The notes below the pieces were generated by a model that saw only the letters and a list, made by a program, of their open reading frames with translations, searched no databases and was not told where the DNA came from. This document shows positions 71 through 63,527 of a DNA stretch of 64,000 nucleotides, piece by piece (the stretch's first letter is position 1; every line of letters starts with the position of its first letter). Source of the DNA: a virus; IMG/VR virus record IMGVR_UViG_3300037247_001314, positions 32,001 through 96,000 of that record; one strand, 5' to 3'. The translations under genes and the position numbers were made by a program.

Positions 71-522
71 GTTGCGTTCCCATCTTTCACGAGCGCAGAT
101 TTCAACAAGCCGCAAAGCTCGTTGACGCTCATACCGTAAAGCGGGCCGTCTTCCTCGAAGTCTTCGTCGGTGTGCCCTTGCGCAATGAGCGCCGCCTTCA
201 TCTTAGCAAATGCAGCTTCCTCAATGGCCACTACTTTTGCGGTGTAGTCGGGGCTCTCGCTTTTGATGGTGTGGTCGTCGACCGCTTGGAGAATCTCCGC
301 CACCATGCGGTCGTACCCTCTGGTCGCGCGTGAGCGCATGCTCCCGTGAAGTTCACGGAGCGCTTGGTGCTTGAGCACGGGTTCGTGCGCGTGCAGGGAA
401 GCCTTCTGGAGCGCGTTGGCGAGCTCGGGCGCATCGACTGCAAGCGCCTTCGCGAGTTCGTCGAGAAGGTCAGAGCCGCGCTCTGCGAGTTCCCCTTTGG
501 TGGCGTCCAGACGTAGCCTCAT
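67..522 (-). CDS. Hypothetical protein, probably head-associated
   Basis: Start moved to ATG 522 (ATGA overlap with the upstream stop); next to the portal operon; carries LAKA/LQKA/LLKS motifs. Confidence 0.7.
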   Translation of the reverse strand: MRLRLDATKGELAERGSDLLDELAKALAVDAPELANALQKASLHAHEPVLKHQALRELHGSMRSRATRGYDRMVAEILQAVDDHTIKSESPDYTAKVVAIEEAAFAKMKAALIAQGHTDEDFEEDGPLYGMSVNELCGLLKSALVKDGNAT

Positions 523-926
523 GGCGTTATGGGATCTCCCCACACCGCCCAAAGGAGTCGCAGGTCTGCAAGCGGAGTGACCTTCAGCGACGTGACGATA
601 GCCTCCATGAACACTTTCGCGTCTGGAGCTTTAGGCGCGGTGGCTACGTCGGTCTGTCCTCGACGCACCTGGATGACTTGCCCGCTGTTGTTGATTTCTA
701 GGTCGAAGTCGTTATCGGCTCGCAAGAAAAAACCGTAGATGGTGGTGGGGCCACCGAGGGGGACATCAAACTCGCCGGCAGCAAGAGTGATGTCCCTGGT
801 GTCGTTGCCCTGGCTAGCGAAGCCGTCGAGGATGGTCTCCGCTAGGACGTCGCTCAGTCCGAGCAAGATGGAGGTGCCATCTTTGTCCTCAGTGAAACGT
901 GGGTTGACGGTGTGTCGAATGCGCAT
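519..926 (-). CDS. Hypothetical virion protein
   Basis: 135 aa, GGGAGG RBS, beta-rich composition, directly downstream of portal. Confidence 0.7.
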   Translation of the reverse strand: MRIRHTVNPRFTEDKDGTSILLGLSDVLAETILDGFASQGNDTRDITLAAGEFDVPLGGPTTIYGFFLRADNDFDLEINNSGQVIQVRRGQTDVATAPKAPDAKVFMEAIVTSLKVTPLADLRLLWAVWGDPITP

Positions 927-935
927 AGCGCCTCC

Positions 936-2852
936 CTACAGGTCGAGGTCAATGTGCAAAACTGCGGCTCGGCGCTCGGCCTTCTTCAGTTTCGTAGCAA
1001 GGTGTGCGCGCTGGCCATCATACTGATCGGCGAGGGCGGACTCTCGCGCTGCGTGCGCCTTGTACTGCACAGCTAGGGCGCGAGCTTGGTCCCGCTCCAC
1101 TTTCAAATCGTGAATGGGCTGCCCCTTGCGTAGCGCCGCATCCGCGCGCATGGCCTCGGTAGGTGAGTGCGTCCAGAGACCGTCGGCGCTCTGAAGCCAA
1201 CCATCCATCCATCCCATCGACTTCGCAGCCGCATCAGGCTTAGCAGGCTTGCCGGGAGGACCACCCTCAACGTTGTTGCTTGCGCCTTCGTCGTCAGCCG
1301 CGTTCTCATTCTGGATGCCATCGAGTTCGCCGCCGAAGCCGTCGTCTTCCTCGCCAGGCTCGGGGGGAGGGGCGAAGTCGCCGACCTCCATGTCCTGCTG
1401 AGCGGCCATCGTCTTGTTCTGCATCCAGACAGGGTTGAGGATGACCTCGCCTTCGCCGTCTGGAAGCGGTGGCAAGTCTTCTTCGGCACGCACTTCGTCC
1501 ACGGTCTTGTACGACGACACGAGCTTGGTGTTGAGGTCTGCGAGCTCCTCGGGCGACGCAGCGTCGAGCCCCACGAAAGCAAACTCGAAGTCCTCGTCGA
1601 TGCGGTGGACGAGGTACGACGACAACCGGTGCGCGATGAACCGAAGCAGCGGTTGCAGCCCTTTGTCTTTCGAGTTCGCGAGCTTCTGTTTGTTGTTGCT
1701 CTCAAACATCGACGATGCGCCGCCGCTGTCGCCGTACTTGAAGTTGATTTCAAGCGGGTCCATCCCATAAATGGCGCACGCAACCTTGATGAGGAAATCG
1801 AACCACGCGCTAAACTCCATGTCTTTGTTGGACTCTTGGAGCTTGATGTATTCCAGACCTTCGGCGTTGGTGATGGGAGTTTTGAACGCGTTCTCGATGC
1901 CGGCGACCATCGAGTACCAGTGTCGACGGAAAGCGCGCAGCTGGCGCTCAGGCACCGCACCCTTGAAGTTGATGATGCCCTTGGAGCTTGTGCCTTGACT
2001 GAAAAACTTTTGGTTGTAGTCCCATGACCAAAGCAGCGACGTCACCGTCGTGATGAGCATCTCCGTCTCAGCAACGCCGTAGCCTTGGTTGCGAATGTCG
2101 GTGACGGGGTTGCGGATGCCGAAGCACAGTTGGTCCGCGCCATACTCCGCGGTGACGAGGCCATCATAAATCTGGACGTAGCGCGTCTCGTCTGGGTTCC
2201 CTTGGTAGTGGAGCTTGGTGGTGTCTGCGATGCGCAACGTAGCGCCGTCGACGGCGTAGAAGTCGAAGGGTTTGTGCCCGCGGTCTTCGCGCACCTCAAA
2301 ACCCATCTGGTCGTAGGTGAGCGCGTCGCGAGTGATTTTGCGAAGGAACGTCTCAAAGTTGTCACGGGCGTTCGGGGTAGCCTCGTCAGCCACCTTGCCC
2401 GTCGTCATCATCCAGTTGGTGATTTCTTTGCTCATCTTCTCGCTGGCACGAGAGGGGGCTGCCTTGCGGTCGCGCAGCTGAATGCGGAAACCTGTCTGGA
2501 ACTTATCCTCTTGCGGCATCGAGAACGACGCCAGCTGGTCGGTGCGAGTTTTGATTATCGCCTGGAGGATGGGCATGCGAAAGACCATCGCCTGCAGCGT
2601 CGAATAGCTGATGGAGCTCGGGCGCTCTTTATACCCGAGCGCGTCGATGACGCTGAACGGGTCCCAAAAAAGTGCCTTAGGCTCCGCCGTGGGGTCGCCA
2701 ATCTCCGACGGGTGCATTGCAGCGGTCGCAGGTGTGTTCTCCGACGGCTGTGCACCATCGTCGTCCTCGTCACCCTGAGCTTTGGCGAGGACGTCGAGGG
2801 CAGCTACCGAAGCAGCGCCCGCGGCGTCTCGCATGGTATCGAACAACCCCAA
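936..2852 (-). CDS. Portal protein
   Basis: 638 aa with portal motifs FYAVDGATLR, GYGVAETE, YNQKFFSQG, DMEFSAW and TVDEVRAEEDLPPLPDG; close to terminase. Confidence 0.93.
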   Translation of the reverse strand: MGLFDTMRDAAGAASVAALDVLAKAQGDEDDDGAQPSENTPATAAMHPSEIGDPTAEPKALFWDPFSVIDALGYKERPSSISYSTLQAMVFRMPILQAIIKTRTDQLASFSMPQEDKFQTGFRIQLRDRKAAPSRASEKMSKEITNWMMTTGKVADEATPNARDNFETFLRKITRDALTYDQMGFEVREDRGHKPFDFYAVDGATLRIADTTKLHYQGNPDETRYVQIYDGLVTAEYGADQLCFGIRNPVTDIRNQGYGVAETEMLITTVTSLLWSWDYNQKFFSQGTSSKGIINFKGAVPERQLRAFRRHWYSMVAGIENAFKTPITNAEGLEYIKLQESNKDMEFSAWFDFLIKVACAIYGMDPLEINFKYGDSGGASSMFESNNKQKLANSKDKGLQPLLRFIAHRLSSYLVHRIDEDFEFAFVGLDAASPEELADLNTKLVSSYKTVDEVRAEEDLPPLPDGEGEVILNPVWMQNKTMAAQQDMEVGDFAPPPEPGEEDDGFGGELDGIQNENAADDEGASNNVEGGPPGKPAKPDAAAKSMGWMDGWLQSADGLWTHSPTEAMRADAALRKGQPIHDLKVERDQARALAVQYKAHAARESALADQYDGQRAHLATKLKKAERRAAVLHIDLDL

Positions 2853-2860
2853 GGGAACCT

Positions 2861-8501: not shown

Positions 8502-8541
8502 CGACTAGGTTGCCGTGGTCCAGACAAAATGTCCAGACGAG

Positions 8542-10540: not shown

Positions 10541-10768
10541 CTACCAAGTGTCCTCGGGCAATGCACCTTCAGCTGGCGAACCGTCTGCGTACGTATGGAA
10601 CACGCGGAGACCCGTGACGGGGTCGCGAGTAGTGCGCGCTTCACGCTCCTCTAAATAGCGCCGCTCGGATTCTAGGCGCAGGTGCTTTTCGGCACCGTGC
10701 ATGAAACTGACGATCCCGATAACCCCACCAAACAACACCGAGCCCACAATAATAGCAACAGTAAACAT
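10541..10768 (-). CDS. Small single-pass membrane protein
   Basis: N-terminal hydrophobic helix; AAGGAGG RBS. Confidence 0.7.
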   Translation of the reverse strand: MFTVAIIVGSVLFGGVIGIVSFMHGAEKHLRLESERRYLEEREARTTRDPVTGLRVFHTYADGSPAEGALPEDTW

Positions 10769-10941
10769 CAGCGCACCTCCTTAGTTGTGTTCGTTCTCTC
10801 TTCCAAATAGTAACGCTCTTCGCGCTCCCATTTGCGTTGCAGGATGCGGTCGACAAGCCGCGGATTTCTCTGCACCCCTAGCGTGTACCCCGCGAAGAAC
10901 CCGAACATTGCGCCGACAGTCACGAATAACCAGTCAAGCAT
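10768..10941 (-). CDS. Small single-pass membrane protein
   Basis: MLDWLFVTVGAMFGFFAGYTLG...; start at ATG 10941 overlaps the upstream stop region. Confidence 0.65.
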   Translation of the reverse strand: MLDWLFVTVGAMFGFFAGYTLGVQRNPRLVDRILQRKWEREERYYLEERTNTTKEVR

Positions 10942-11551
10942 TGGCGTCCAGACGCGCAGCTTTCCATCGAGACTGATTCCAACAGCGCTTGCAAGTGACC
11001 TCGTCCCAATCGTCGGTAAGCCGGCATCCGTACTGCGCCGCACACGACGCGAGCTTCTTGTTATACGGATCGCGCATATGAATCTTCCACCTCGGAGGGT
11101 TCGCGCTATCGACGAAAGACTTTTCTTCCAGACGGGCGGGCTGCGTATGACAAAGCGCCTTAAGTCGCCCCAACTCTTCCAAGAGTTCGGGGTCACTACC
11201 CGCTGGCCACCACATCGTGCCGTGCTCATCAGTCCAGCCGCCCTCAACATTGAGCGACTCGCCGGCAGCCTTCTCTTCTTTCGGGGCGGGTTGGTCTTCG
11301 ATGACTCCCTGCTTCCGCAGCCGAGCGTTTGTTTCCTCGATACGCGTATCGGTCGCCGTAATGGCAGCGCCCCACTTCTCCACCGCCGCAGAGGTAACAC
11401 CGTACTGCTCAGCGACGTCGTCAACTCGGGCACCGTTCCGCACAGCGCGGGCAGCCATCGACCTATCCCTGTTTGTGAGCATTGCCATCTGAAAGTCCAG
11501 ACGCGCACCAGGCACGAGCAGCGTGCTCATGCAGTTCCGGTGAGCTTGCAT
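10934..11551 (-). CDS. HTH-containing protein (start uncertain)
   Basis: RVDDVAEQYGVTSAAVEKW helix-turn-helix; C-terminal Cys cluster. Confidence 0.6.
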   Translation of the reverse strand: MQAHRNCMSTLLVPGARLDFQMAMLTNRDRSMAARAVRNGARVDDVAEQYGVTSAAVEKWGAAITATDTRIEETNARLRKQGVIEDQPAPKEEKAAGESLNVEGGWTDEHGTMWWPAGSDPELLEELGRLKALCHTQPARLEEKSFVDSANPPRWKIHMRDPYNKKLASCAAQYGCRLTDDWDEVTCKRCWNQSRWKAARLDANA

Positions 11552-11702
11552 CAGTGTACGCCCGGATCTTGTCGTTCAGATCGTAAAGTGTCCAGACACT
11601 TTTCCCATTCCGAAACGCCCAGCCTGCTGGCCCACCCAGCTGCCTGCCTCCTGGGAGCGTTTCCTGTTCAACGACGAGGTCAATACCAGCTGGATGATTC
11701 AC
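11463..11702 (-). CDS. Hypothetical protein
   Basis: GTG start at 11702; fills the gap in the operon. Confidence 0.45.
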   Translation of the reverse strand: MNHPAGIDLVVEQETLPGGRQLGGPAGWAFRNGKSVWTLYDLNDKIRAYTDASSPELHEHAARAWCASGLSDGNAHKQG

Positions 11703-11877
11703 GAGCTTTCTCCCCTTCTGCATGTTCAATGAGATCGGTGGACTGCGCGAGCAGTTCTGCCTTCGCCGCAGCGTCGAAGGTGTCCGGTTCTTCTGCAAGC
11801 TTCTTGAGTCGCCGAGTGACGCGCAGCATCTCCCATCGCCAATCGGTTTGCACCTTGGTGTCGTCGTCTTCTCCCAT
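11680..11877 (-). CDS. Hypothetical protein
   Basis: GAGGAGG RBS; 65 aa. Confidence 0.65.
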   Translation of the reverse strand: MGEDDDTKVQTDWRWEMLRVTRRLKKLAEEPDTFDAAAKAELLAQSTDLIEHAEGEKARESSSWY

Positions 11878-11887
11878 GTAGTCCTCC

Positions 11888-12496
11888 TTAGACTTCCTCG
11901 GGCTCTCCCGTCCAACTGCCGCTGAGTGCTCTTGTGGTCATTGAACCGAACGCGCGGCCCAAAGCTTGGCGGGTCGCAACAGGTGCGCTCACGGGCGAGG
12001 TGGGGGCTTCTGTCGACGCGTCTAGACTATTGGTATTATCCCTGTGGGCCAGAGCCGCGCTTGGAATATCTCCGCTGTGGTTCAGCATGTACCTCGCAAT
12101 ACCTTTGGAGCATTCGGTGGCCTCTACTTGAATCGCTACTGCTTCCTCGCGCGGGAGTTTGCTGGCCGCGGCAAATCGTCTCCAGACAGAAGCCAACTGC
12201 TCAACCCCAGCAAGCACCGTAGTCATTGGGACCTTCGCGTCGCCGCCGTTGGCGCCAACGAACTTGTCTACACATTTGAGCAGCTCAGTGCTGAGCGCGT
12301 GCGCGCATTCGTGGGCTCGGTCCTGTCGTTGTGCAAAATGGCGAAAACACTTCTCGTGCGACGTGAAGACCGTTTCCTGCACCGCAATGGAATGCCCCGG
12401 CACTATCGGCTTGCGACAAAAAGGACAGATGCCCAACGGCTGCGTGGCCAGCCCCAGCATTACCTTCTCGAAGTCGAGCCCTTTGATGAACATCAA
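11888..12496 (-). CDS. Zn-finger-containing hypothetical protein
   Basis: CPFC...HEKC motif; translational coupling with the upstream gene. Confidence 0.65.
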   Translation of the reverse strand: MMFIKGLDFEKVMLGLATQPLGICPFCRKPIVPGHSIAVQETVFTSHEKCFRHFAQRQDRAHECAHALSTELLKCVDKFVGANGGDAKVPMTTVLAGVEQLASVWRRFAAASKLPREEAVAIQVEATECSKGIARYMLNHSGDIPSAALAHRDNTNSLDASTEAPTSPVSAPVATRQALGRAFGSMTTRALSGSWTGEPEEV

Positions 12497-13089
12497 AAAT
12501 CTCCCGCGATGGTGAACACACCTTTGGGGCCGATCGCTTCCTCACCGGGAAAGCAGGCCTCTAACGCTTTCAGGATCCGCCGCTTGAGCTCCGGAGAACA
12601 CTTCACGGCCCAACCCTTCCAGACAGGCTTCTTAGCCTTCTTAGGCGCAGGCGCCCAGAGGGCTTTGCGGTTTGTCCAATCAATATTTTGCTTGATCAAC
12701 CCATTAAACTTCTTCGACACATACGGCGTCTGGACAATCAACACAGGGCAGAGCTCGGCCTGGAACATGGACTCGCCACGGGTGAGGGTAATGACTTTCT
12801 TGATGAATCGCTTGCGCACGATTTCACCAAAGTGAGGGAAACCCAACGCAGCTACTTGGTCGGCCAGATGCATCTTCTGCGCATTTGACGTTGTTGCCAG
12901 CGCTGCGAGAAACACCAGCTTGTTAGCCTCTTGCCGCTGCTCGTCGGTGGCGCAGTCGCTCACCATGTACTTGCTGCGGCAGATGGGGCCGATGCCCGTC
13001 TCTACCGACACCGCGTCTAGCAGCGGCTTGCCACAACAGACGCAGTTGATAGCGGTGAGCAGCGTAGCTTTTGCGTTCAAGTAACCCAT
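12493..13089 (-). CDS. DUF6011-like Zn-finger protein
   Basis: CVCCGKPLLDAVSVETGIGPIC signature. Confidence 0.75.
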   Translation of the reverse strand: MGYLNAKATLLTAINCVCCGKPLLDAVSVETGIGPICRSKYMVSDCATDEQRQEANKLVFLAALATTSNAQKMHLADQVAALGFPHFGEIVRKRFIKKVITLTRGESMFQAELCPVLIVQTPYVSKKFNGLIKQNIDWTNRKALWAPAPKKAKKPVWKGWAVKCSPELKRRILKALEACFPGEEAIGPKGVFTIAGDF

Positions 13090-13095
13090 AAACCC

Positions 13096-13133
13096 ATCAT
13101 AGCAGCGGGCATACTGCTGTCAAGACATTTGTC
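13096..13133 (-). promoter_or_regulatory. Class I (sigma70-type) promoter with operator-like spacer
   Basis: GACAAATGTC-TTGACA-N16-TATGAT, with extended TG. Confidence 0.85.
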
Positions 13134-13485
13134 GATAAAGTGCGACCGCGCGTCGCTTTTTCTTTGGCCCCAGTACGGCTCTCGCACGCCAATCAAACTC
13201 CTCTGCTGTCCCGCGGAGAACAGTAGCCAGTCGGCCAGCCCGATCCCGAGCCTTACCTAGGGAGCGGTAAGGCGCATCGTGGTCGCAACGGGCGGTGGTC
13301 TCCTGGTGCTGGGCATGAACGGTGTACGTTTTGAACTGCGGCTGGTGTTCGATCCATACGTCCCAAGTTCCATGATCGAACTTCGGTTCCCAGCGTAGTC
13401 CGGGCCCAAAGTTGGTCCCGCTGCCCTCCTCAGGAACGGCGCAGCTCTCTAAAATCTGAGCAGTGAGTCCAAACATGCAAATCAC
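13120..13485 (-). CDS. Hypothetical protein
   Basis: GTG 13485 overlaps the upstream stop; C-terminus KKKRRAVAL. Confidence 0.6.
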   Translation of the reverse strand: MICMFGLTAQILESCAVPEEGSGTNFGPGLRWEPKFDHGTWDVWIEHQPQFKTYTVHAQHQETTARCDHDAPYRSLGKARDRAGRLATVLRGTAEEFDWRARAVLGPKKKRRAVALYRQMS

Positions 13486-13859
13486 CAAATCCAAGAGAGC
13501 GTGACCGGCCGCCGTTTCTTCTTTGGCGCCGAAGTAGGGAGAAACTCCCAATCGTAAAGCGTCGCGTCCTCGTTAGTTTTAGCAGGATCTAGCACCGCCG
13601 AACCGAACTGGCTGTTACTGCCGAAGAACTGCTGTTGCGCTGATGGCCGATACTTCCGACGAGCAATGAGTCCTAAGCGCTCCGCCGCCATCAGCGTCTG
13701 GCGCATGCGGTCGACGTTGTCCGAAACACCGAGTTCACCCGCCATCATCACGAGCTTCTCGCCGTGGATTATGAATCCGGTCCAGCTCGACGCCACCAGA
13801 GCCTCCCAAGCCTTGCCCCCGTGGAGTTCCAAAATCTGTGCGTCAGTGAGTCCAGACAT
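13482..13859 (-). CDS. Hypothetical protein, possibly winged helix
   Basis: 125 aa, coupled start; C-terminus KKKRRPVTL. Confidence 0.65.
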   Translation of the reverse strand: MSGLTDAQILELHGGKAWEALVASSWTGFIIHGEKLVMMAGELGVSDNVDRMRQTLMAAERLGLIARRKYRPSAQQQFFGSNSQFGSAVLDPAKTNEDATLYDWEFLPTSAPKKKRRPVTLSWIW

Positions 13860-14377
13860 CAGCAGTACCCCGGCGTGCGCTTGAGCCTGCGAAACTGTGC
13901 AGCCGGATCCAGCACCACGTACTCCTTGCGCTCAGTGCGCCTACCGTCGACGAGGTATCTGGACACCCTCCACGCCACCACAGGCGCCTCAAGGCGGGCG
14001 AGGTCCATGAGCAACGACATATCCCGGCCGTGAAGGCTAGCCCCCTTCCTGTCCAGACGCTTGCGTAGGACGTCAGCCGTCACCGTCTTGGGCCTGACGT
14101 AGAAGCAGTCCGGGGTTTTGGCGTAGCGGTAGGGCGTGTCTGGAACCATCTGGTCTGCCCGCACCAGCGGGGTGGGTTTGTCCTGTGGTGGGTTGATACG
14201 GCCCACTCTGCCAGCAGCGAGCGCCTTCACGTTGGCGATAACGATGTCCCCCGCGGATATCAAGATGGTTTCCCGCGGGGTTTGTTGGGCGAAAGGCAAA
14301 TCTTGCTGTGCGGTCGGCACCTGCAACGTCACGCCGCGCTTCTTTTTCTTGCGAATCTTTTTCTTCTTGGGGAACAT
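13859..14377 (-). CDS. Basic hypothetical protein
   Basis: Start at ATG 14377 (MFPKKKK...KKKKRGVTL) after GGGGGA. Confidence 0.6.
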   Translation of the reverse strand: MFPKKKKIRKKKKRGVTLQVPTAQQDLPFAQQTPRETILISAGDIVIANVKALAAGRVGRINPPQDKPTPLVRADQMVPDTPYRYAKTPDCFYVRPKTVTADVLRKRLDRKGASLHGRDMSLLMDLARLEAPVVAWRVSRYLVDGRRTERKEYVVLDPAAQFRRLKRTPGYC

Positions 14378-14379
14378 AC

Positions 14380-14565
14380 TCAGTCCCCCACGAGGGTAAA
14401 GGTCTGCGCGTCGGTAGTCTTGGTGACGAGAAAGGTGAACCCGTTTATGCGCACCCAACCGGCCAAGTCCTCCAGTTGTCCAGCAAGCACTTCGCGTTCC
14501 TCGTCGTCAAGGTCGGCGCGATTGAAGGCAAGTAAAATATCTTCCAGGCAGCGATGCGGATCCAT
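14380..14565 (-). CDS. Small hypothetical protein
   Basis: MDPHRCL...LAGWVRINGF; TAATG coupling. Confidence 0.65.
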   Translation of the reverse strand: MDPHRCLEDILLAFNRADLDDEEREVLAGQLEDLAGWVRINGFTFLVTKTTDAQTFTLVGD

Positions 14566-15125
14566 TAGTCTTTCCCCTCTTTTTCCAGACGCCGACACTG
14601 TTCATTGTAGAGCGCGGGCGCCATCTGCCCCTTCTCTGTGATTTGGTAATGGCCTTGCTTGATACGCACGACCAAGCCGAGTTGCTTGGCGCGTACGAGT
14701 CGCGTGTGAGTCGCGTTGCTCGCTAGGTCTAACCGCTTCTGCACTTCTGCAGCGCGCAGCGTCGCATTGGGAGGGAACACCATCAGCAACTCCAAAATGT
14801 TTCGAGCGATGCGCCTACCAGCCACCGGTGTTTTAGGCGCACCAGACGAAGGCTTTAGGGCTGGGGCGGATGTGAGCACTGCGTAGGCGTCAAGGAGACT
14901 GAATAACGGCGACACGTACCGCGCGTCTACGGGGAGGCCGAGGCGCCGCACATGGTCTTCGGCGAGACGCTTTACTCGCACCTCATTACGAAGATACTCA
15001 AGCTCTACTTCTGCAGCCTGAAGTTTTCGCTCACTGTGCACCACCACGAGAGCATGGGTTTTTCCGAGGCCCTTGCTCACCCAATAATCCCGGCGCTTTT
15101 CCGCATGCTCGTCGGAGAACGTCAC
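14565..15125 (-). CDS. Winged-HTH protein
   Basis: C-terminal LRAAEVQKRLDL...TRLVRAKQLGLVVRIKQGHYQITEKG. Confidence 0.7.
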   Translation of the reverse strand: MTFSDEHAEKRRDYWVSKGLGKTHALVVVHSERKLQAAEVELEYLRNEVRVKRLAEDHVRRLGLPVDARYVSPLFSLLDAYAVLTSAPALKPSSGAPKTPVAGRRIARNILELLMVFPPNATLRAAEVQKRLDLASNATHTRLVRAKQLGLVVRIKQGHYQITEKGQMAPALYNEQCRRLEKEGKD

Positions 15126-15634
15126 GAAGACCTCGCAGTCTCGCCAGCGCGAGCCTCGCAGACTTCCTCAATATCCTCAAACTCGTCCCAGTCAAAGTTG
15201 GCCTCCACGAGCTCGTCATAGAGCTCGACGCTGAGCGTCTTCTCCAAGTCGTGGCGAATCTTCACACAGGCTTGGTACATAGCCTCTATTTTGCGGCTGT
15301 CGTAGTCGAGGTCACTGGCCCAATCCTCAAAGCTTTGGTCGGTTCCAGACGCGTCCGTGACGAAGTGCCCCCTGCCCTGCGAAAAGACCACCGTGGCGCT
15401 GCGACGCCCTTGGTGTTGCAGGCACACCACCCAATGCGAGCAGCCTGTCTTGTAGTTCGTGCGGCGCTCTTCAGGCACCTCCGCGTCGGTCGCGGGTCGC
15501 ACAATGGCAACCACCTTCTCGCTGTCGTCGACAGCGTCAGCTTTCGGCAGCCTGCGATAGACCTGCTGCCGGTTCTGTTCGTTCTGCTCGAAGTCGTGGA
15601 TGGTGCGTGGGTTGCTTGTTGTCTGGAATGGCAT
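15122..15634 (-). CDS. Hypothetical protein
   Basis: AAGGAG RBS; first gene after the class I promoter. Confidence 0.7.
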   Translation of the reverse strand: MPFQTTSNPRTIHDFEQNEQNRQQVYRRLPKADAVDDSEKVVAIVRPATDAEVPEERRTNYKTGCSHWVVCLQHQGRRSATVVFSQGRGHFVTDASGTDQSFEDWASDLDYDSRKIEAMYQACVKIRHDLEKTLSVELYDELVEANFDWDEFEDIEEVCEARAGETARSS

Positions 15635-15652
15635 GTGGTGCTCCTTGCATCT

Positions 15653-15691
15653 AGATTACCAGCGGGCATATTGCCTGTCAAGACATTTGTC
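15653..15691 (-). promoter_or_regulatory. Class I promoter
   Basis: GACAAATGTC-TTGACA-ggcaatatgcccgctgg(17)-TAATCT. Confidence 0.88.
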
Positions 15692-15700
15692 TAAGTTTAG

Positions 15701-16909
15701 TTAGATCTGAATAGTGACAGCGCGCTTCACTGGGCGGCGTTCCAGATAAGCGCTTATGAACGCCTGCGCTTGCGGAGCGACGATAGCGTTTCCGTAGGCG
15801 CACAATCGCCCCACGCGGTTGGCAACCCCATGAGCCAACGGGAATGTGCCGGGTTCAACTGGCCGGGCTTTTCCGTCGGTGCAGGGGATCCAGTCAGCGT
15901 CTCCCCAATAGCTCTCTCCGCGTCCAAGGCTAGACAAGCGCAACCGTGCTTCGTCCCGTGCTTGGCCTTCTGCGTTCGGCTGCGTCCTCTGGCGTCGTGC
16001 GCTTGCGGTGTCGTCCAGTGCGCGGCGTGCAACGCTGCCGCCTTCAGAGCCACCCCTCCTTGCCGTCCCGGGGGTATCTGTGGCCCCGTGCCGTCGTTCG
16101 CTCGGGGTGTGGGCCAATGGGCCCGCGTCGCTCTCGTCGGCAGATCGTCGTGTGTCGCTGACCGCTCTTTCCCAACTGACCTCGTCGATGCTCCCTTGTG
16201 GTCGGTGGCGTTCGGCGTCGGCCAAGTTGCCAGCTGCGCTTGTAGGTTGAGGCTGGTCAGCGACACACCCAGCTTGAATCCCTTCGCTATCGCCGCTCTT
16301 TTTCTCGCCAGGAACTGCTCCGGCGTGCCTCCCGCTTCGCGCGCTGCAGGCGTTGCCCATGGAGCCGCTTCTTCGACCGATAGGTTGATGTTGCCGTTTG
16401 CCACGCTCGTCGTGGGCAGACCAATAGAGTCGTTTCCTTTGGTGCGGGGCACCGAAACCACAAGCCGCGGTAACTGCCGCCCCGACGGTGTATCCGCCAC
16501 TTTCCAGGTCTGTCGATACAAGGTCGAGCCAAGTTTCGCCTGGCTTACCCGCAACCTGTTCGCCAAAGATGTTGTGAGGAGCGCACTGCTCAATGAGCCA
16601 GAACCAGGAGGGCCAGAGGTGCCGCTCGTCAGCAAACCCCGCTCCTTTGCCTGCCGCGCTGAAAGGTTGGCAAGGACAACTTCCAGTCCAGACGGGACGG
16701 TCATCGGGCCAACCCGCGTTTCTGAGCGCCAAGCTCCAGACACCTATTCCCGCGAAGAAGTGACATTGTGTGTATCCTTTCAGCTCCGATGGAGTGACAT
16801 CCTCAATGCTCCGCTCATCGACGTCACCAGGTGCGATATGTCCTGCAGCAATAAGATTGCGGAGCCATTGCGCAGCGTAAAGGTCAATCTCGTTGTAGTA
16901 CGCGACCAC
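15701..16909 (-). CDS. C5-cytosine DNA methyltransferase, catalytic (alpha) chain
   Basis: Motif I HFFAGIG, catalytic GSCPCQPFS, motif VI FGEQV, motif VIII HQRKRLY, motif X AYGNAIV. Confidence 0.9.
15754..16743 (-). CDS. Overprinted methyltransferase partner (beta) chain with repeated TRD-like units and motif IX; start uncertain
   Basis: 329-codon open alternative frame nested inside the MTase; W[PAT]TP repeats; [15 protein letters not shown] resembles motif IX, which the main frame lacks. Confidence 0.7.
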
Positions 16910-16926
16910 AGGGTCACCTCAACCGT

Positions 16927-16965
16927 AAACTAGCAGCGGGCAATATGCCTGTCAAGACATTTGTC
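16927..16965 (-). promoter_or_regulatory. Class I promoter
   Basis: GACAAATGTC-TTGACA-ggcatattgcccgctgc(17)-TAGTTT. Confidence 0.85.
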
Positions 16966-20982: not shown

Positions 20983-21030
20983 CCCAACAACCGTAGGCAT
21001 ATCTCCAGACAGACGTCCAGACCGGCCAGG

Positions 21031-27944: not shown

Positions 27945-28151
27945 TTAGTTTTTCTCGACGCGAAGGTTAAAAGGTTCGCCGCAATCAATCTCACCGGAAT
28001 GACACCACTCCTCGTCTGGCTTCCCATCGTTGCCCTCAAGCCCCTGTAGGGGCCGGTCCTCTGCGAGCTCGATCGCTTTCGCTTTTGTGGGCGCCTCGAC
28101 GTGGGTGTGCAGCGAGATTGTACCGAGTGCGGCCACTACAAACTTAGGCAT
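27945..28151 (-). CDS. Small hypothetical protein
   Basis: VEAPTKAKAIELA motif. Confidence 0.6.
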   Translation of the reverse strand: MPKFVVAALGTISLHTHVEAPTKAKAIELAEDRPLQGLEGNDGKPDEEWCHSGEIDCGEPFNLRVEKN

Positions 28152-28776
28152 TCGTCAGCTCGCCGACGTCGTCAAACACAACGGGGATACGACTCCGAAA
28201 CTCGGCCAGCATAGGGCGCGTTATTTCGCGAAGCTGTGGGTGAGCTGTGTCGGGTGTGCGCATCTTGAAAAAGTGCCGCCACTCGCGCAAGTTCGCGGTC
28301 ATCACGATTTCGGTCTTGAGGCTGTTGGGCAAGACCGAACGAGCCATCTGTGGGCTGGCACCTGCATCGAGCATCTGGAAGTAAATCGACTCCGCAAACA
28401 ACACCCCCGCCCGCCAGGCCTCAAATGTCACCTCGTCCACATGTGGTCGCGGATCGATGACGGTGATTTCCCGACCGAACTTGTTCTTGGTGTAGTTGCA
28501 GTAGCGCGTCGACTCCTGCGAGTAGGACGCAAGACGATGACGCACAATCTCGTGAGAGATGCCGCGGTCGCAGATGATCCGCACGCTCGCGGACTCATGT
28601 TCGATGACCGTCTCGTGGCCGCGCTTGAGCACCATGGCCACAAACTTCTGCGAACTGTCATCCGTGATTTTGTCCTCGGACTTGTAACAAGTTCGCCCAG
28701 CCAGCTCGATGCGACGCAGCATCTCGTAGCCGTTGATAAGTGACACAATCTCGTAGGATGACTTAACGATTTTCAT
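28144..28776 (-). CDS. thyX: Flavin-dependent thymidylate synthase
   Basis: Signature RHRLASYSQESTR, GHETVIEH, NLREWRHF. Confidence 0.95.
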   Translation of the reverse strand: MKIVKSSYEIVSLINGYEMLRRIELAGRTCYKSEDKITDDSSQKFVAMVLKRGHETVIEHESASVRIICDRGISHEIVRHRLASYSQESTRYCNYTKNKFGREITVIDPRPHVDEVTFEAWRAGVLFAESIYFQMLDAGASPQMARSVLPNSLKTEIVMTANLREWRHFFKMRTPDTAHPQLREITRPMLAEFRSRIPVVFDDVGELTNA

Positions 28777-29369
28777 GATTCTGGTTCCTTGTCGTCGAGG
28801 ACGTACGCAACAGCTGCAAGACGCGTAGCAGTGGTTGTGCCCTCGGGGTTGCAATGAGCGAGCGTGCTCAAGACGATAGCCTCGTCATGTTTGCGCGCAA
28901 GGCCATCGGTGCTCGCTTCCTCTATTTTCGCCACGATCGCGTCAATCTTTTCGCGACACTCATCTGCGTCCCTCCAACAGGCTCGTACACGAGAGTGGTG
29001 GCTGTAGCCTTCGCGGGCCAGCGATCTCAGTTTTGGAAGCAGCTCTCGAACGCGAGCCAGTTGAGCAGCGAGCTCAGCGTGCGCGTCACCAAGAGCAGAG
29101 ACAAGGTTCGCAGGATCGCGAGCCTGGTCGTCGAAAGGAACGCCGAGGTGTTCCTCCACGCTCTGCCGAAGTGCCAGCACCACCTCGTCCTCTTGGGGCA
29201 CATCACCCCACTCTGTGCGACGCGTGAAGCTCGGCTGTGAATGGATTTCGTCGTCTAGAGCATATTGCGCCATTGTCACCAAAGCGCACGCTGCACAGAA
29301 CTCAGTAGCGTCTCCACACCAAACGACTGTAACTTTCGCTTCGTCTGGACAATCTTCACATTTAGCCAT
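28773..29369 (-). CDS. Hypothetical protein with N-terminal Zn finger
   Basis: CEDC...CAAC. Confidence 0.6.
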   Translation of the reverse strand: MAKCEDCPDEAKVTVVWCGDATEFCAACALVTMAQYALDDEIHSQPSFTRRTEWGDVPQEDEVVLALRQSVEEHLGVPFDDQARDPANLVSALGDAHAELAAQLARVRELLPKLRSLAREGYSHHSRVRACWRDADECREKIDAIVAKIEEASTDGLARKHDEAIVLSTLAHCNPEGTTTATRLAAVAYVLDDKEPES

Positions 29370-40785: not shown

Positions 40786-41610
40786 TCAGCCCGTCGCCAG
40801 CAGCTCGTTGATGGCGCCACGGCCAGCGCCGTCGCAGCTGATGGAGTGCTGCGTGGCGAGTGTCTGGACTTCGGCTTCGGGCCAAAGAAATGACATGAGC
40901 GGCCCGAGTTCGTCGGCCGTGCTGTTGGAGTAGATGACAAACGCGCCAGCGTTACGCCACTTCCAAATCTGACAGAGAAGCTCGACGTGGTCGGCGTGCG
41001 TGAAACCATCAGCGGAGTACCCGTCAAAAGTTCCGTAATAGGGTGGGTCGACGTAGACGACGGCGCCAGGAGCGACGACGAGGTCAGTGTACGGCTCGTA
41101 TCGAAGTTCTACGTATTGCAGAGTCTCGTGCCAAGCTTTGATGTTCCCCTCGTCGAGGATTGTAGCCTTCGCGTACTTTCCCCACGACGAGTTGAGTTCA
41201 CCCTTTCGATTCAGACGCCACAGCCCGTTGAACGCCGTCTGCTTCAGAAACACGAAGCGCGCAGGCGTGCGTTCACCTTGGTTCCAGAGGTCGCGTTGCT
41301 CGTAATAAAGCCGCTCAGCGTCACGCTGCGGATGGTGATACTTGCGCTGAAAATAAAGCAGATTGGCGAGGAGTTCTTCCATCCGTTTTGGATCCTGCAC
41401 CGCGAAGTACAAATCCATAAGTCCGTCGTTAATGTCACCAAGCGAAACGCGGGCGCACTCGTTGAGGTCCTCGTTGGCAATGAGTTCGCAGAAAACTGCC
41501 GCACCGCCAGCAAAAGGCTCATGGTACTCGGTCATCACGACGGGCACATGCTCGGTGATGACGGGGGCCAAGCGAGTCTTGCCCCCCACATATTTTATCA
41601 ATGGCTTCAC
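40786..41610 (-). CDS. Dam-family (D12 class) N6-adenine DNA methyltransferase
   Basis: KYVGGK, EPFAGGAAV, FNGLWRLN, YVDPPY; GGAGG RBS before GTG 41610. Confidence 0.92.
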   Translation of the reverse strand: MKPLIKYVGGKTRLAPVITEHVPVVMTEYHEPFAGGAAVFCELIANEDLNECARVSLGDINDGLMDLYFAVQDPKRMEELLANLLYFQRKYHHPQRDAERLYYEQRDLWNQGERTPARFVFLKQTAFNGLWRLNRKGELNSSWGKYAKATILDEGNIKAWHETLQYVELRYEPYTDLVVAPGAVVYVDPPYYGTFDGYSADGFTHADHVELLCQIWKWRNAGAFVIYSNSTADELGPLMSFLWPEAEVQTLATQHSISCDGAGRGAINELLATG

Positions 41611-41706
41611 GATCGATCCTCCACATACCCACAACAGCTACAAACCCACTTCACCGTCGACGTGCGAACAAGCGACTCCTCATCACAGCTAGGACACGTC
41701 CTGACG

Positions 41707-57471: not shown

Positions 57472-58629
57472 CTAGAGCTTCCAGAACTTCGGACTCGACC
57501 AGTTGGCCATCGCGCGGGTGCCCCCACCGTCCCCCTGGCGAGCGAAGTCCTTGGTACCGGTGATGTGCACGACGGTGGCGTAGAGAGTCTCGTATTTTCT
57601 ACCAGACATCTTGTAGCCGTCCCTGAGGACAGTCACCTTCCACTCCTTGCCCTCGTACACACGCTTCAAAACAGTGCCCGTCTTGAGTGCTGCAACTTTT
57701 GGAGAACGCGAACGCTCCCGAGCAAACCGAGACATCACCTCGCCAATACCTTTTTTCTTCGCGGGCGCTTTCTTGGGAGCCGTCTTCTTCGTCGCTGACG
57801 TTTTCTTGCTCACAGCCTTTTTCTTAGAGACAACCTTCTTCGCGACTTTCTTTTTGGCCACCACCTTTTTAGCCGCAACCGCCTTTTTCTTCGCGACAGT
57901 TTTCTTCTTCGCGGCTGCTTTCTTTTTAACAGGGGCCTTCTTCGCCGCTACTTTCTTCTTATTTCGGGACATACCCGTATCCTTCGCGTTCTCGTCCCCC
58001 ACGGTAACCTCGACGACAACAGTACCGTCTGGCAGCGAGAGTTCATCTGAATCCGATTCTTCCGCCGAAGAAACTTCTTTGGCGTCCTCGTCGCTGGCCC
58101 CACCTAGGACGAGCGAAAGGCCCCCACCCTCTGCGGGCTTCGTCTCAACGGTAGGTGGTTCTGGGGCAACGCCCTTTCGCTGTGCAGCAAGCGCCTCAGC
58201 GAGTTCTGGCGTTGGTTCAGCTTGAGGGCCAATAAGAGCCTCGATGGGGTTCCCTTCGACGTCCTCCCGCCACTTACCTGTCGGGTGCCCACCCTTGTTA
58301 CGCGCCAGCAAAGGAAGCAGTTTGCGACCCAGAGTGATGCCGTCGACACACTCTGCCCCCATCGCCTCAGCAACGTCAGCATCGTCTGCGGTTTGCCCGT
58401 TGTCGACGGCGCTCTTCCCGAGCTTCTGAGTTTCGATACCAGGGATTTTACGCGCAATAATCATAATGCAGCGGTCGCGCACAAGGCACGTTCCCATACA
58501 TACGCTCTCATCCCCCTCGTCGGTGTCGTCTTCAAAAGCCGAGCCGTAGCACTCGTACTCGCGTTGGATCTTCTTGTCGTTCCATTGCCGAGGGTCAAGA
58601 ACACGCGATTCATCTGCTTCATTAGCCAT
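57472..58629 (-). CDS. Histone H1-like K/A-rich protein with C-terminal DUF2924-like domain
   Basis: ~70-aa KKKAAAKKK tract; GTVLKRVYEG...YETLYATVVHITGT...WSSPKFW. Confidence 0.75.
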   Translation of the reverse strand: MANEADESRVLDPRQWNDKKIQREYECYGSAFEDDTDEGDESVCMGTCLVRDRCIMIIARKIPGIETQKLGKSAVDNGQTADDADVAEAMGAECVDGITLGRKLLPLLARNKGGHPTGKWREDVEGNPIEALIGPQAEPTPELAEALAAQRKGVAPEPPTVETKPAEGGGLSLVLGGASDEDAKEVSSAEESDSDELSLPDGTVVVEVTVGDENAKDTGMSRNKKKVAAKKAPVKKKAAAKKKTVAKKKAVAAKKVVAKKKVAKKVVSKKKAVSKKTSATKKTAPKKAPAKKKGIGEVMSRFARERSRSPKVAALKTGTVLKRVYEGKEWKVTVLRDGYKMSGRKYETLYATVVHITGTKDFARQGDGGGTRAMANWSSPKFWKL

Positions 58630-58639
58630 GGTGGTCCTT

Positions 58640-59251
58640 TCAGGCGAGCTCTGCCGCCGCAGCTTTGCGAGCTGAGGCAACTCTGTTGCGCCAGCCCTGG
58701 TATGAAATGCCGAGGTCAGCGCAAACTTCCTGCACCTCACCTCGAGCCCGCTGCAGCTCACCTCGGACACGTGGAATGCCTGGTGGGCTCAGCGCAACGA
58801 CATGCTTCAGCGTGTCTTTATGTCGGAGCGACAGTCGCGCGTCCAGACGCCGAAGGCAAGACCGATCTTCCAGACGATTACCCAAATCGAAAGGGGCGAT
58901 AGCGACGCAGGCAGCCCGCGGCGTGCCAGCACCGTCAAAATCATCCGCCTCAAAATCCTCCACCACTGGGGCCTGATGCGAAAAAGTGTCAGTTCGGCGG
59001 GATGCACGCCTGATGTTGCGCGCGTGGTTCCACATCGCTGTGTAAACATACTTGAGCGGGCGAGTGCGGTCCTCGTAAAGCACCTCACAAATCTTAAGAT
59101 GTATTTCTTGCTCCACATCTGCAAAAGACAACGCGCGAGCGTCCCTCCCGGACCGATTACGATTTCGAAACGCAAACCGGGCTACCTTCCGCACCTCCCA
59201 GGCAGACGGGTACACCGATGCCACCACGGGCACCTTCCTTTTCTTCAGCAT
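58640..59251 (-). CDS. Sigma70/ECF-like sigma factor
   Basis: Region 2 ADVEQEIHLKI...YVYTAMWNHARN; region 4 VQEVCADLGISYQGWRNRVASARK. Confidence 0.72.
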   Translation of the reverse strand: MLKKRKVPVVASVYPSAWEVRKVARFAFRNRNRSGRDARALSFADVEQEIHLKICEVLYEDRTRPLKYVYTAMWNHARNIRRASRRTDTFSHQAPVVEDFEADDFDGAGTPRAACVAIAPFDLGNRLEDRSCLRRLDARLSLRHKDTLKHVVALSPPGIPRVRGELQRARGEVQEVCADLGISYQGWRNRVASARKAAAAELA

Positions 59252-59581: not shown

Positions 59582-60643
59582 TCACAAAAGCAATGTGCCT
59601 GGTGAAAATGGCTGGGCGTGTGCGCGATAGGCATCGAGTTCGGCACGGCTGTAGTCGCCGGGGTCGCCCCGCGGCAGAAAAACTAAACGGACATCCATGA
59701 ATGCGGAGAGCTGACCCGCGGCTTGAATCATCGACTCCCAAGCCCCGCGGGGCTCCTTTGGTGTCGGGCCATCCCACATGAAATCGACCGCGCGCACACC
59801 AGCGTCGACGAGTCGCGCGATTTGCTGCGGTTGCAGTTGTTTGCCGAACGTCGCGACGGCTGAAGGGCCCGCGCGGATGCACGACGTCGGGCCCTCGGTG
59901 ATGCACACTCTCGGGTAGGCCGCGGCCTGTTCCAGGTTGAGCACCACATCGCCCGAACCGAAATACCAGATGCCGCCGCGCTCTTGGGACGGGTTGAGCG
60001 TCTTGCGAAACTTGTCCTTGCCGACAGTGCCGTCTTTGCGGGTGAACGGACGAGCCACGTGCTCGTCCTCGTCCCACATCGCTCTTGCCTGCCAATAGAT
60101 ACATTGCCCACGCTCCCAAACAGGAAACACCAGCCGATTAGCCAGCCATCCAGACGCACACCACCCAAGGCCAAAAAGCCTCGCATCTTCCAGCGTAATC
60201 TGTCTTTTGCTAAGGTAAGGCATACTGCCCGCGATAGCAAGCGTTCCATCTGGAAGACCTGTCGGGCATACTGCCGGGGGCGTTTTTTGTCCAGAGAGGA
60301 ACGAAGTTTCCGGGAGTTCCGTGGGTGAACCTAAAGCATGGCTCACAAACTCGGCGATGCGCTGGATAGCCTGGCTGGTGTTCAAGCCCTCCAACCACTT
60401 GACCAGACCGAGCGCGCGGCCGGCGCCGGCAATGGCGCGCTTCTTACCAAGGGCATCCACCAGATACTTCTCGCAGCGGAAGCAGCGCCAAAACCCCGTC
60501 GACGTGTTGATACTGAGCTTTGCGAGTCCGCATTTCGGGCAGCCCAGAAGCAGTTCGTTGCGCCCCTCACGCTCAGCCGCGAACCCCTGCAGGTACCGCT
60601 CGACGTCAAACCGCTGCAGCAGAAGGTCAAGGTTTTCTTTCAC
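59582..60643 (-). CDS. DNA primase (Zn finger plus TOPRIM)
   Basis: CPKC...CFRC, RLVFP, WQAR, ITEG, ATFGK, WDG, DPGD; GTG start at 60643. Confidence 0.88.
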   Translation of the reverse strand: MKENLDLLLQRFDVERYLQGFAAEREGRNELLLGCPKCGLAKLSINTSTGFWRCFRCEKYLVDALGKKRAIAGAGRALGLVKWLEGLNTSQAIQRIAEFVSHALGSPTELPETSFLSGQKTPPAVCPTGLPDGTLAIAGSMPYLSKRQITLEDARLFGLGWCASGWLANRLVFPVWERGQCIYWQARAMWDEDEHVARPFTRKDGTVGKDKFRKTLNPSQERGGIWYFGSGDVVLNLEQAAAYPRVCITEGPTSCIRAGPSAVATFGKQLQPQQIARLVDAGVRAVDFMWDGPTPKEPRGAWESMIQAAGQLSAFMDVRLVFLPRGDPGDYSRAELDAYRAHAQPFSPGTLLL

Positions 60644-60792
60644 CAGGCGCAGCGCCCGGCGCCCATGAGCATCAGCCAAATGACGTCGTCGTCAAATGGG
60701 TCCGGCTCTGCGGGGACAAGATACGTGAGGTCGTGCCAGACGAAGCTAACCCCAATCACCGCAGACTCGAAAAAACCTTTCTTTCGAGCCAT
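60640..60792 (-). CDS. 50-aa protein not in the ORF track
   Basis: MARKKGFFESAVIG...RCAW*; fills the helicase-primase gap with a GTGA overlap. Confidence 0.5.
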   Translation of the reverse strand: MARKKGFFESAVIGVSFVWHDLTYLVPAEPDPFDDDVIWLMLMGAGRCAW

Positions 60793-60794
60793 CG

Positions 60795-62264: not shown

Positions 62265-62877
62265 GAACTCTCCGCGAGATGGACTCTGCCTGTGACGACG
62301 ACAAACGCCCTTCACGCAAAGCCAAAATATCGAACATCACGTAGCTCTGAATCCGTATTGAGCATCGATCCCGCAGCGGGCACGCCCAGCACACCTTGGA
62401 CGCGGGGTGGAACCCCAGCGTGCGTTCCAAAACTTGTTCCAGACACTCTTGAGCTTTCCCCGTCTGGACATACTGGCGCTTCATCGCTTCGACTGTGTGG
62501 GCAAGGTCCCGGTTAGGATCGAAAGCCTGTTCGGCAGCGGCGTCGCGACCGGTCGCGCGCACCCGCCGCCCAAAAAAACCGATACCCCGCATTCGTCGAT
62601 AACGGAAAATCTGCTTCTCGCTCAGGAGGTGGCCGCGGAGCAAACTCGGTGCCCCCACCCAACTGCGATTCTTGAACAACGCAAACAGCCACAGCCGCGG
62701 CTCCAGCCGTTTTTCCCGGCACCATACGATAAGGTCGTCGAGAAGCGCGCGAAGCTCGGGGGTCATCTTCTTCGGTCCGATGCGAGCACCCTTGCCTTGC
62801 AGCGTATGGAAATGCTTCGTGAGGGTTCGGTAATAACTCCAATCTGCGAGCAGTTGAACCGCAAGATCGCTACTCAT
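62257..62877 (-). CDS. Replication-associated hypothetical protein with Cys cluster
   Basis: FHPASKVCWACPLRDRC; directly upstream of the helicase. Confidence 0.65.
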   Translation of the reverse strand: MSSDLAVQLLADWSYYRTLTKHFHTLQGKGARIGPKKMTPELRALLDDLIVWCREKRLEPRLWLFALFKNRSWVGAPSLLRGHLLSEKQIFRYRRMRGIGFFGRRVRATGRDAAAEQAFDPNRDLAHTVEAMKRQYVQTGKAQECLEQVLERTLGFHPASKVCWACPLRDRCSIRIQSYVMFDILALREGRLSSSQAESISRRVHG

Positions 62878-63131
62878 CCGCGCTCGAACCCAGTCCCCTC
62901 GACGAGGAAAAGACGCGCAACAGCGTGCTTAGGAATCATCTCCTGGCGGTTGTGGGGGTCGGGCGGAAGTTCAACGCCGTAGCTGTAACGGTCGACCCAC
63001 AAGAGTTGACAGCGCAGGAACTTGATGGGCGTCGTCGCAGACACCTTTTCGTCGCCGACGAAAACGATGCCGATTTGCTTTCCTTTGAGCTTGTCCAAGA
63101 ACCCAGATTCCGGCCCATTGTTTTTACCCAC
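62874..63131 (-). CDS. Hfq/LSm-like RNA chaperone
   Basis: FLDKL helix, IGIVF, QLLWVDRYS (Sm1) and EMIPKHAV (Sm2, cf. Hfq MVYKHAI). Confidence 0.72.
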   Translation of the reverse strand: MGKNNGPESGFLDKLKGKQIGIVFVGDEKVSATTPIKFLRCQLLWVDRYSYGVELPPDPHNRQEMIPKHAVARLFLVEGTGFERG

Positions 63132-63513
63132 GTCGTGCGCTCCGTTTCTTCAAGTCAGCTTGATGTTGGGCCTTGAGCCGTTGCAGCTGGGCAATGGCGT
63201 TGTCAATCTCATCAAGCCAAAGCCTGTCATCCTTGAAGATGGGTGCGCCCACCGCGGACCCACCAGCCACTTGCTCGTCGACAACGTAACCCGTCTTCTC
63301 GACATTGCGCTGGCTGTTGTACGCGTGCACAACTTGCATGAGCGCGTCGACGCCGGTGGGCCAAGGAAGTCCTCGCACCAGCGTCGGAGCGTGGAACACG
63401 AGGTACGTGCGGTCACTGCCCTGCAGAAACCTAATCAGATGTTCGGGGTCGCTGATAGCAACCGCTTCCTGTGCTCGGGCTAGAGCGCGTGCATCAACGG
63501 TAGGCATCACCAT
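63124..63513 (-). CDS. Hypothetical protein
   Basis: GGAGG RBS; 129 aa. Confidence 0.65.
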   Translation of the reverse strand: MVMPTVDARALARAQEAVAISDPEHLIRFLQGSDRTYLVFHAPTLVRGLPWPTGVDALMQVVHAYNSQRNVEKTGYVVDEQVAGGSAVGAPIFKDDRLWLDEIDNAIAQLQRLKAQHQADLKKRSARRG

Positions 63514-63527
63514 AAAATCCTCCAGAC

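Follow-up and report, generated by a model that had tools for sequence, protein, structure and literature searches.

Iterated signal words such as Chi, the DNA uptake sequences (DUS) of Neisseria and uptake signal sequences (USS) of Pasteurellaceae, and the highly iterated palindrome HIP1 of cyanobacteria are known from cellular genomes, the function of HIP1 being unsettled. Here we analyse a word of this kind in an uncultured tailed phage, G000, represented by a single virus record (IMG/VR IMGVR_UViG_3300037247_001314; 106,804 bp, 58.5% G+C), starting from a window of 64,000 nt, its bases 32001–96000, through which the heptamer TCCAGAC (GTCTGGA on the opposite strand) is scattered; coordinates refer to the window unless given as bases of G000. 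A first-pass annotation of the window had likened the word to Chi, DUS and HIP1, and it does belong among the iterated signal words: its closest counterparts are HIP1, DUS/USS, Chi and, in Cluster A mycobacteriophages, the stoperators, each of them failing on at least one defining feature. Literature searches on the word, on TCCGGA and on iterated palindromes in phages found nothing describing either the word or the family trait reported below.

HIP1 (GCGATCGC) and the alternate cyanobacterial palindromes (Elhai 2015, PMC4390886) resemble the phage word in their density (about one per 0.3–1 kb), in lying in both genes and spacers, and in being replaced by other words in a lineage-specific manner; relatives of G000 also use true palindromes (TCCGGA and TTCCGGAA). 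The differences are that HIP1 belongs to cellular genomes rather than to a phage family, that the G000 word is no palindrome, that word-bearing phage relatives have no recognisable methylase or Vsr, and that near-matches of the phage word are not depleted. Of the features that mark HIP-type words, a palindromic word is absent from G000 and found only in its relatives G007 and G009, and a word-specific methylase in the same genome is not found; very high frequency combined with homologous positions is present (10–14-fold excess; 46% versus 9% conservation, see below).

DUS and USS are non-palindromic 7–12-mers that occur about once per kb, equally on both strands, in several reading frames within genes and in dialects sharing a core, and a dispersed, asymmetric, strand-neutral word with dialects is what we find here. 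Unlike the phage word, they are read by the cells’ competence machinery during DNA uptake, and we know of no uptake process for a virulent-type phage genome. Chi is enriched in some phages, for example P1 (Bobay et al. 2013, PMC3784561), and is likewise a host-specific short word with additive copies. The likeness is plausible for a permuted, recombination-replicated genome, but Chi is asymmetric, polar and read on a single strand, whereas the phage word is denser, has palindromic dialects and shows no orientation polarity (103:101 between strands, runs test z = −1.4, five genomes). The stoperators, sites of the L5 repressor gp71, are a case of dozens of copies of one word spread across a phage genome and read by a phage protein. 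They are 13–14 bp long, occur in a few dozen copies that are mainly intergenic, and point one way relative to transcription; the 204 copies analysed here are mostly genic (24 are intergenic) and randomly oriented (87 sense, 93 antisense). Noc, SlmA and KorB sites are palindromes, dispersed through a replicon, that a DNA-binding protein recognises as a dimer, and the Noc half-site TTTCCC/GGGAAA resembles TTTCC/GGAAA; such sites are, however, 12–16 bp long and number in the tens, and a search for ParB_N-domain proteins in G000, G006, G007, G009 and G011 found none. Finally, the nick-site motifs of phages T5, tf and phiKMV are few and confined to one strand, unlike 204 copies shared equally between strands.

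Abundance, conservation and placement of the word

The first-pass annotation had tallied by eye about 130 copies against some 8 expected, roughly one per 500 bp, and had staked its case on the excess outlasting shuffles that preserve codons and dinucleotides. A pattern search of the window returned exactly 130 copies, spanning 506..63527 and including those it had listed, and dinucleotide-preserving shuffles of the window yielded 8.7±2.7 (maximum 17). Across the whole genome the count reaches 204 (plus strand, 103; minus strand, 101), with a mean spacing of 524 bp. TCCAGAC is the commonest 7-mer of G000, in 10–14-fold excess, and the strongest 7-mer outlier under Markov models of order 1, 3 and 4 (z = 49, 41 and 16, respectively), a check that the annotation had likewise proposed. 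When synonymous codons were exchanged at random inside each gene, so that proteins and codon usage stayed unchanged, 59.2±4.8 copies resulted (maximum 75), and codon permutation gave 39.4±3.9 (maximum 50), as compared to the 204 observed; since the excess survives both codon-level shuffles, it is real. Furthermore, because amino-acid sequence alone lifts the expected count from ~15–20 to 59, the proteins of G000 are themselves bent to hold the word.

Selection works on the DNA rather than on the proteins, writing the word into genes and spacers and maintaining its copies there. In the colinear relative G001 (110 kb, 197 copies; 72% nucleotide identity over the aligned parts, 83% for the terminase), 48 of the 105 aligned G000 copies (46%) are kept in place and orientation, as compared to 12% for all 7-mer windows and 9% for windows in the same codon phase 9–30 bp away, and only 2 copies are flipped. 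Per-base identity climbs from 0.70 to 0.74–0.89 across the word and peaks on it. Near-copies should be in excess if the word were decaying, and depleted if a repair-type process converted them into it; the one-base variants of the local word, summed, lie at expectation (ratio 1.03; 0.94–1.26 in five genomes). Near-matches thus do not feed the word by correction, and it is not in decay either. The conservation of both place and orientation rules out a random assembler choice at a modified palindrome as well as a neutral relic. That selection acts on the DNA, as the annotation had proposed, is thus borne out by the codon shuffles and by the G001 comparison alike.

In full, the G000 word reads Y-K-TCCAGA-C-R (Y, C or T; K, G or T; R, purine): 154 of the 204 copies have G or T at position −1, and a purine follows directly on TCCAGAC in 191, matching the earlier description of it as usual. 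TCCAGAT and TCCAGAA are likewise 3–5-fold enriched, making position 7 the loosest of the word. Spacing is exponential, or Poisson-like (Kolmogorov–Smirnov p = 0.85), and orientation is random beyond 100 bp (runs test z = −1.4). No strand polarity was found in five genomes rotated to the terminase gene, and no helical phasing of the copies was found either. Pairs less than 100 bp apart lean weakly to the same orientation in G000 (26 of 31), a tendency unseen in G001. Within genes, the 87 sense copies are read as (F/L/I/V)-Q-T (44), x-P-D (42) and S-R (1), and the 93 antisense copies as x-L-D/E (43), x-S-G (33) and V-W (17). The word thus occupies both orientations and several frames, as had been noted by eye: five of the six frames are in use, the TCC-AGA-C frame, which brings in the rare AGA codon, having the single S-R copy. 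Spacers hold 24 of the 204 copies, about 1.6-fold more than expected from the part of the genome that they make up, and the intergenic copies often lie 1–40 nt ahead of start codons. Outside the copy-free block described below, genes found only in G000 have 1.6 copies per kb and core genes 1.9. Within the window, the array and its individual examples are as follows:

506..63527, both strands: word array, 130 dispersed TCCAGAC/GTCTGGA copies, the window’s share of the 204
8519..8538, plus strand: intergenic pair, two direct copies at a distance of 13 bp in the spacer that immediately precedes the large-terminase start
21004..21022, plus strand: direct pair, copies 12 bp apart, 4–16 nt upstream of a start codon
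42781..42787, minus strand: intergenic copy just downstream of a promoter-like TTGACA-N17-TACGCT, with the start of an ADP-ribosylglycohydrolase gene 16 nt further on; a copy of the kind that the annotation had placed inside an ‘upstream element’
16687..16741, plus strand: two copies within the C5-methylase gene, compared with its Xanthomonas-phage homologue

Could codon usage or the amino-acid composition of the proteins account for the excess, or could errors of assembly or base calling at a modified palindrome? Amino-acid sequence does raise the expectation to 59, but 204 copies stand against 59±5 (maximum 75), five frames are used and the spacers are enriched 1.6-fold, which rules out the compositional explanation. 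The artefact is ruled out by the orientation of the copies, which is inherited between independent assemblies (48 kept versus 2 flipped). We give either form of this explanation practically no credence.

A second explanation, and a very improbable one, is that the word is a functionless relic of methylated TCCGGA deaminated to TCCAGA/TCTGGA. One transition separates the two words, sister phages are rich in TCCGGA and share some homologous sites with G000 (see below), and both orientations are equally frequent. A relic is at odds with the rest of the evidence: the copies are retained, and in the same orientation (48 kept versus 2 flipped), five times as often as nearby 7-mers, one-off variants show no excess, and the flanks are specific to this dialect, with K at −1 and, on the other side, C at +1 and R at +2. 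Substitutions other than this transition also create copies, as in the C5-methylase gene, where within a stretch 79% identical to Xanthomonas phages one copy needed two point changes and the other one. We therefore reject the relic on the positional conservation and on the absence of an excess of further-mutated forms. The annotation’s own view that deamination alone was insufficient agrees with the variant ratio of 1.03, with the conservation of copies, and with TCCGGAC not being the usual counterpart in G001.

A block of tail-region genes of about 5 kb, ahead of the window (G000 bases 10733–15711; L001), is free of copies, and no orthologues of it were found in the relatives. Its 618-aa protein has relatives (40–63% identical) in very diverse phages, including contigs of 180–480 kb, and given this diversity it is silent on the host. 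No comparable word was found in ~55 unrelated phage contigs (at least 9 kb long) that share the tail-region protein with G000. That other phages do not share the word, as this survey and the copy-free block indicate, counts in favour of the phage-encoded reader proposed below.

Dialects across the phage family

Searches of viral contigs with the terminase and helicase retrieved ~60 related contigs, many of them 100–113 kb long, and we analysed twelve genomes or large fragments in full. The word is family-wide: its core, TCCRGA, characterises 105–110-kb phages that form one family, and takes lineage-specific forms among them, and TCCAGAC is the G000 dialect:

G000 and G001: TCCAGAC followed by a purine
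G003 and L105: TCCAGACT
G006 and L112: TTCCAGAAA, that is, the TTCCAGAA(A) dialect
G010: TCCAGAAA
G002: TTTCCAGA
G008: TCCAGC
G007: palindromic TCCGGA at 364 sites, of which 155 read TTCCGGAA
G009: palindromic TCCGGA, 319 sites

Related phages, to which the annotation had pointed for comparison, thus carry TCCRGA dialects, but not all of them do: G005, G011, G012 and G013 are word-free. Other, unrelated abundant words occur in the family contigs L120, L121, L125, L116, L029, L031 and L039, namely AGATCCA(A) (19 versus 1 expected), a TCCGCAGCA-like word (CCGCAGCA, 27 versus 2) and GAGCTC (80 versus 17). G007 has a second enriched word, CCTGGGC/GCCCAGG (268 versus 56). Outside the family, GTTCCAG/CTGGAAC is 5–6-fold enriched (25–26 versus 4–5) in two unrelated AT-rich jumbo-phage contigs, L146 (181 kb) and L147 (481 kb), and resembles the TTCCAG part of the family dialects.

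Trees of five structural and of five replication proteins are congruent, and neither module therefore points to a reader of the word. G007 (TCCGGA) is sister to G000 and G001 (TCCAGA), and G008 (TCCAGC) to G009 (TCCGGA); the word-free G005 pairs with G006 in the structural tree, and the word-free G011 and G012 (33% G+C) nest with G006 and G010 in the replication tree. This placement of dialects and word-free members implies repeated switches and losses. In codon alignments, G000 TCCAGA sites fall exactly on TCCGGA sites in 7 of 90 cases against G007 and 7 of 111 against G009, where chance predicts ~0.3, and TCCGGA is the commonest counterpart at the G000 sites in both. Some sites therefore predate the dialects and were converted in place by G↔A exchange. 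The non-palindromic word of G000 seems to derive, by a single base change, from the palindromic TCCGGA of its sister phages and, in contrast to TCCGGA, is no classical palindromic target of restriction. The link to TCCGGA that the annotation had drawn is accordingly real, the sisters carrying 319–364 sites and sharing some positions, but it is an evolutionary relationship.

TCCGGA itself is avoided in G000 (7 sites versus ~30 expected) and absent from G001, G002, G005 and G008; TCTAGA is likewise rare. Many other 6-bp palindromes are wholly missing from G000 and its relatives G001–G010. G000 has 0 sites each for GAATTC and CAATTG and 12 for CTCGAG, G001 has none for TCCGGA, CTCGAG or ACATGT, and in G008 eight 6-bp palindromes, as well as GAGACC and CTCTTC, stand at 0 versus 88–149 expected. 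The missing palindromes indicate heavy restriction pressure, and the DNA is probably unmodified. Among the three half-site combinations TCCAGA alone is non-palindromic. The asymmetric dialect may plausibly have arisen from the palindromic word as a form proof against restriction. Two further depletions in G000 are those of GAAGGAG/CTCCTTC, a Shine-Dalgarno-like word that is nearly missing (1 versus ~22 expected) though GGAG-type ribosome-binding sites precede many genes, and of GATC-containing hexamers, despite a Dam-like D12 methylase.

How the word may be read

The dialects and flanks bear on the mode of reading. G007 uses perfect 8-bp palindromes (TTCCGGAA) and G009 the palindrome TCCGGA; the flanks are two-fold symmetric in G000 and G001, with G at ±1 and C/T at ±2 (the right side complemented), and in G006, with T at ±1. 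Palindromic dialects, symmetric flanks and the absence of strand polarity together favour a two-fold reader of the duplex over a polar single-strand signal, although the evidence from symmetry is moderate and only suggestive, because G010 and some other words are asymmetric. We tentatively favour the reading that the word is a docking site on double-stranded DNA for a fast-evolving, sequence-specific protein encoded by the phage. Such an accessory DNA-binding protein would mark, coat or organise the phage chromosome, each added copy of the word giving a small benefit. It is possible, if doubtful, that the family has an undescribed ‘self-word’ system in which a fast-evolving phage protein reads a 6–10-bp word present in 200–360 copies, word and reader shift together (TCCGGA, TCCAGA, TCCAGC), and one of these shifts has made a palindromic restriction target asymmetric and restriction-proof.

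Several observations weigh against a phage-encoded duplex reader and against restriction escape. The flanks in G010 are asymmetric, and some members of the family have the non-palindromic words AGATCCA and TCCGCAGCA. A presence/absence search across 12 genomes found no gene that tracks the word, and no reader. The word-free G011 and G012 retain the entire core replication set, comprising SbcCD, RecA, SSB, a 173-aa protein, PolA, the DUF2924 domain, primase, DnaB, a 206-aa protein and a helicase. G006 and G010 use TCCAGA dialects without avoiding TCCGGA, so restriction escape is not general. Finally, the loss of the word in G011 and G012 coincides with a drop in G+C to 33%, which probably reflects a host shift and fits a host-encoded reader equally well.

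The main rival is such a host-read signal, akin to Chi: a helicase-nuclease of the RecBCD/AddAB type would recognise the word and the DNA ends would thereby be protected in a headful-packaged, circularly permuted and recombination-replicated genome, with dialects that mirror the hosts. Much of the genome organisation suits this idea. The copies would act additively, and a permuted genome needs both orientations everywhere, as in the Poisson-like spacing and the 103:101 strand balance; recombination-replication genes resembling those of T4 (SbcCD, RecA, SSB, DnaB and primase) are present; the relatives assemble as circles, with ‘DTR’ (direct terminal repeat) overlaps; and the word is gone where G+C falls to 33%, suggesting a host shift. 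Chi enrichment in phages without recombination functions of their own is the topic of PMC3784561. Known Chi sites, however, are non-palindromic and read on a single strand, whereas two lineages here use perfect palindromes (TCCGGA and TTCCGGAA) and the flanks are two-fold symmetric in G000, G001 and G006. The density of one word per 500 bp is also about ten times that of Chi in E. coli. Moreover, the phage has its own recombinase set. On balance we regard a Chi-like signal as unlikely, though far from negligible.

As for the host itself, searches of genome contigs with the terminase and the endolysin gave no match. The endolysin matches only Rhizobium and Agrobacterium phages, at 28–29%, the C5 methylase is 47–49% identical to genes of Ralstonia megaplasmids, and no tRNA genes were found in G000.

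Candidate genes and the methylation and priming alternatives

The gene content of G000 is that of a tailed phage, with portal, large terminase, DNA polymerase A, DnaB-type helicase, primase, RecA, SbcCD, SSB and two DNA methylases, and almost all genes lie on the minus strand. Four of them were considered in relation to the word:

57472..58770, minus strand: DUF2924/H1-like protein, a core protein and candidate reader
59582..60679, minus strand: DnaG-type primase (phrog_47, E = 4e-32), considered as a single-strand reader
15701..16909, minus strand: C5 cytosine DNA methylase, rejected as family-wide reader
40786..41634, minus strand: D12-class N6-adenine DNA methylase, rejected as family-wide reader

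In the DUF2924/H1-like protein a Cys-rich N-domain (C-x15-C-x3-C-x5-C) is accompanied by a long, histone-H1-like stretch of Lys and Ala and by a C-terminal DUF2924 domain, which is essentially uncharacterised in the literature. Orthologues are present in all relatives, the word-free G011 and G012 having only a 133-aa form that consists of the DUF2924 domain alone; its occurrence there weighs against the protein as the reader. The C-domain is modelled as small and β-rich (predicted local distance difference test score, pLDDT, 75), and no row of its fold search exceeded Z = 5. The best rows are all weak; DNA-binding domains happen to make up three of the first five, namely the C-terminal domain of CcrM (Z 4.7), MPND (Z 4.5) and SAND (Z 3.4). 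The protein is a candidate reader only. The annotation had proposed HU, the DUF2924/H1-like protein or the helix-turn-helix and ribbon-helix-helix proteins as readers, and a role in the RecA/SbcCD module; we found no link to the word for any of these, and DUF2924, RecA and SbcCD also occur in word-free relatives. Across proteins, the residues that separate TCCGGA from TCCAGA genomes are at background level (0 columns in the primase, 8 in the capsid protein, 10 in PolA).

The phage C5 and D12 methylases are excluded as family-wide readers by their absence from the word-bearing G006, G007, G009 and G010. The same genomes bear on a mechanism of the HIP1 type, in which a word-specific methylase, encoded by the phage or by the host, and methylation-linked mismatch correction would make and maintain the copies, as in Elhai’s model (PMC4390886). 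The relatives’ palindromes are highly iterated, like HIP1 and its alternate forms, and G000 and G001 do encode C5 and D12 methylases, which might recognise the word. G006, G007, G009 and G010 are nevertheless complete, bear the word and lack C5, D12 and N4/N6 methylases alike (a search for the last of these found none in G006–G010), and a search for Vsr in G000, G001, G006, G007 and G009 likewise found none. Correction should also deplete one-off variants, including deamination products, and these are undepleted. A correction-type drive by a phage methylase is rejected on the near-matches and on the methylase-free genomes that bear the word, and we consider a methylase-linked process through a host enzyme improbable.

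Less probable still is that the word is the preferred start site of the DnaG-type primase, or the site of another replication enzyme such as a nickase, used about once per kb per strand in lagging-strand synthesis. One copy per ~1 kb in each orientation does match the spacing of Okazaki fragments, the primase is a core gene beside the helicase, and both strands are used equally. Against this, the primase is still present in the word-free G011 and G012, no residue in it splits TCCGGA from TCCAGA genomes, known primases need only 3 nt, and palindromes and symmetric flanks are not expected of a single-strand reader.

The window also has a gene for a ThyX flavin-dependent thymidylate synthase (28144–28854, minus strand; Pfam Thy1, E = 2e-47), which suggests that the phage DNA contains ordinary thymine. 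On the plus strand, an open frame of 387 aa (15701–16933), high in third-position G+C, overlaps the whole of the C5-methylase gene.

A whole phage family thus maintains a short word in hundreds of copies and pays for it in altered proteins; no family-wide methylase explains the word, and sister lineages change it yet reuse its sites. With several dialects and word-free members, these phages of ~110 kb offer a compact comparative system in which the reader could be found along with the selective reason for the word, be it chromosome marking, packaging, nuclease protection or priming. The same system could show whether restriction pressure pushes a functional palindrome towards an asymmetric form. 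Finally, the word can serve in practice to recognise and bin phages that belong to this family.

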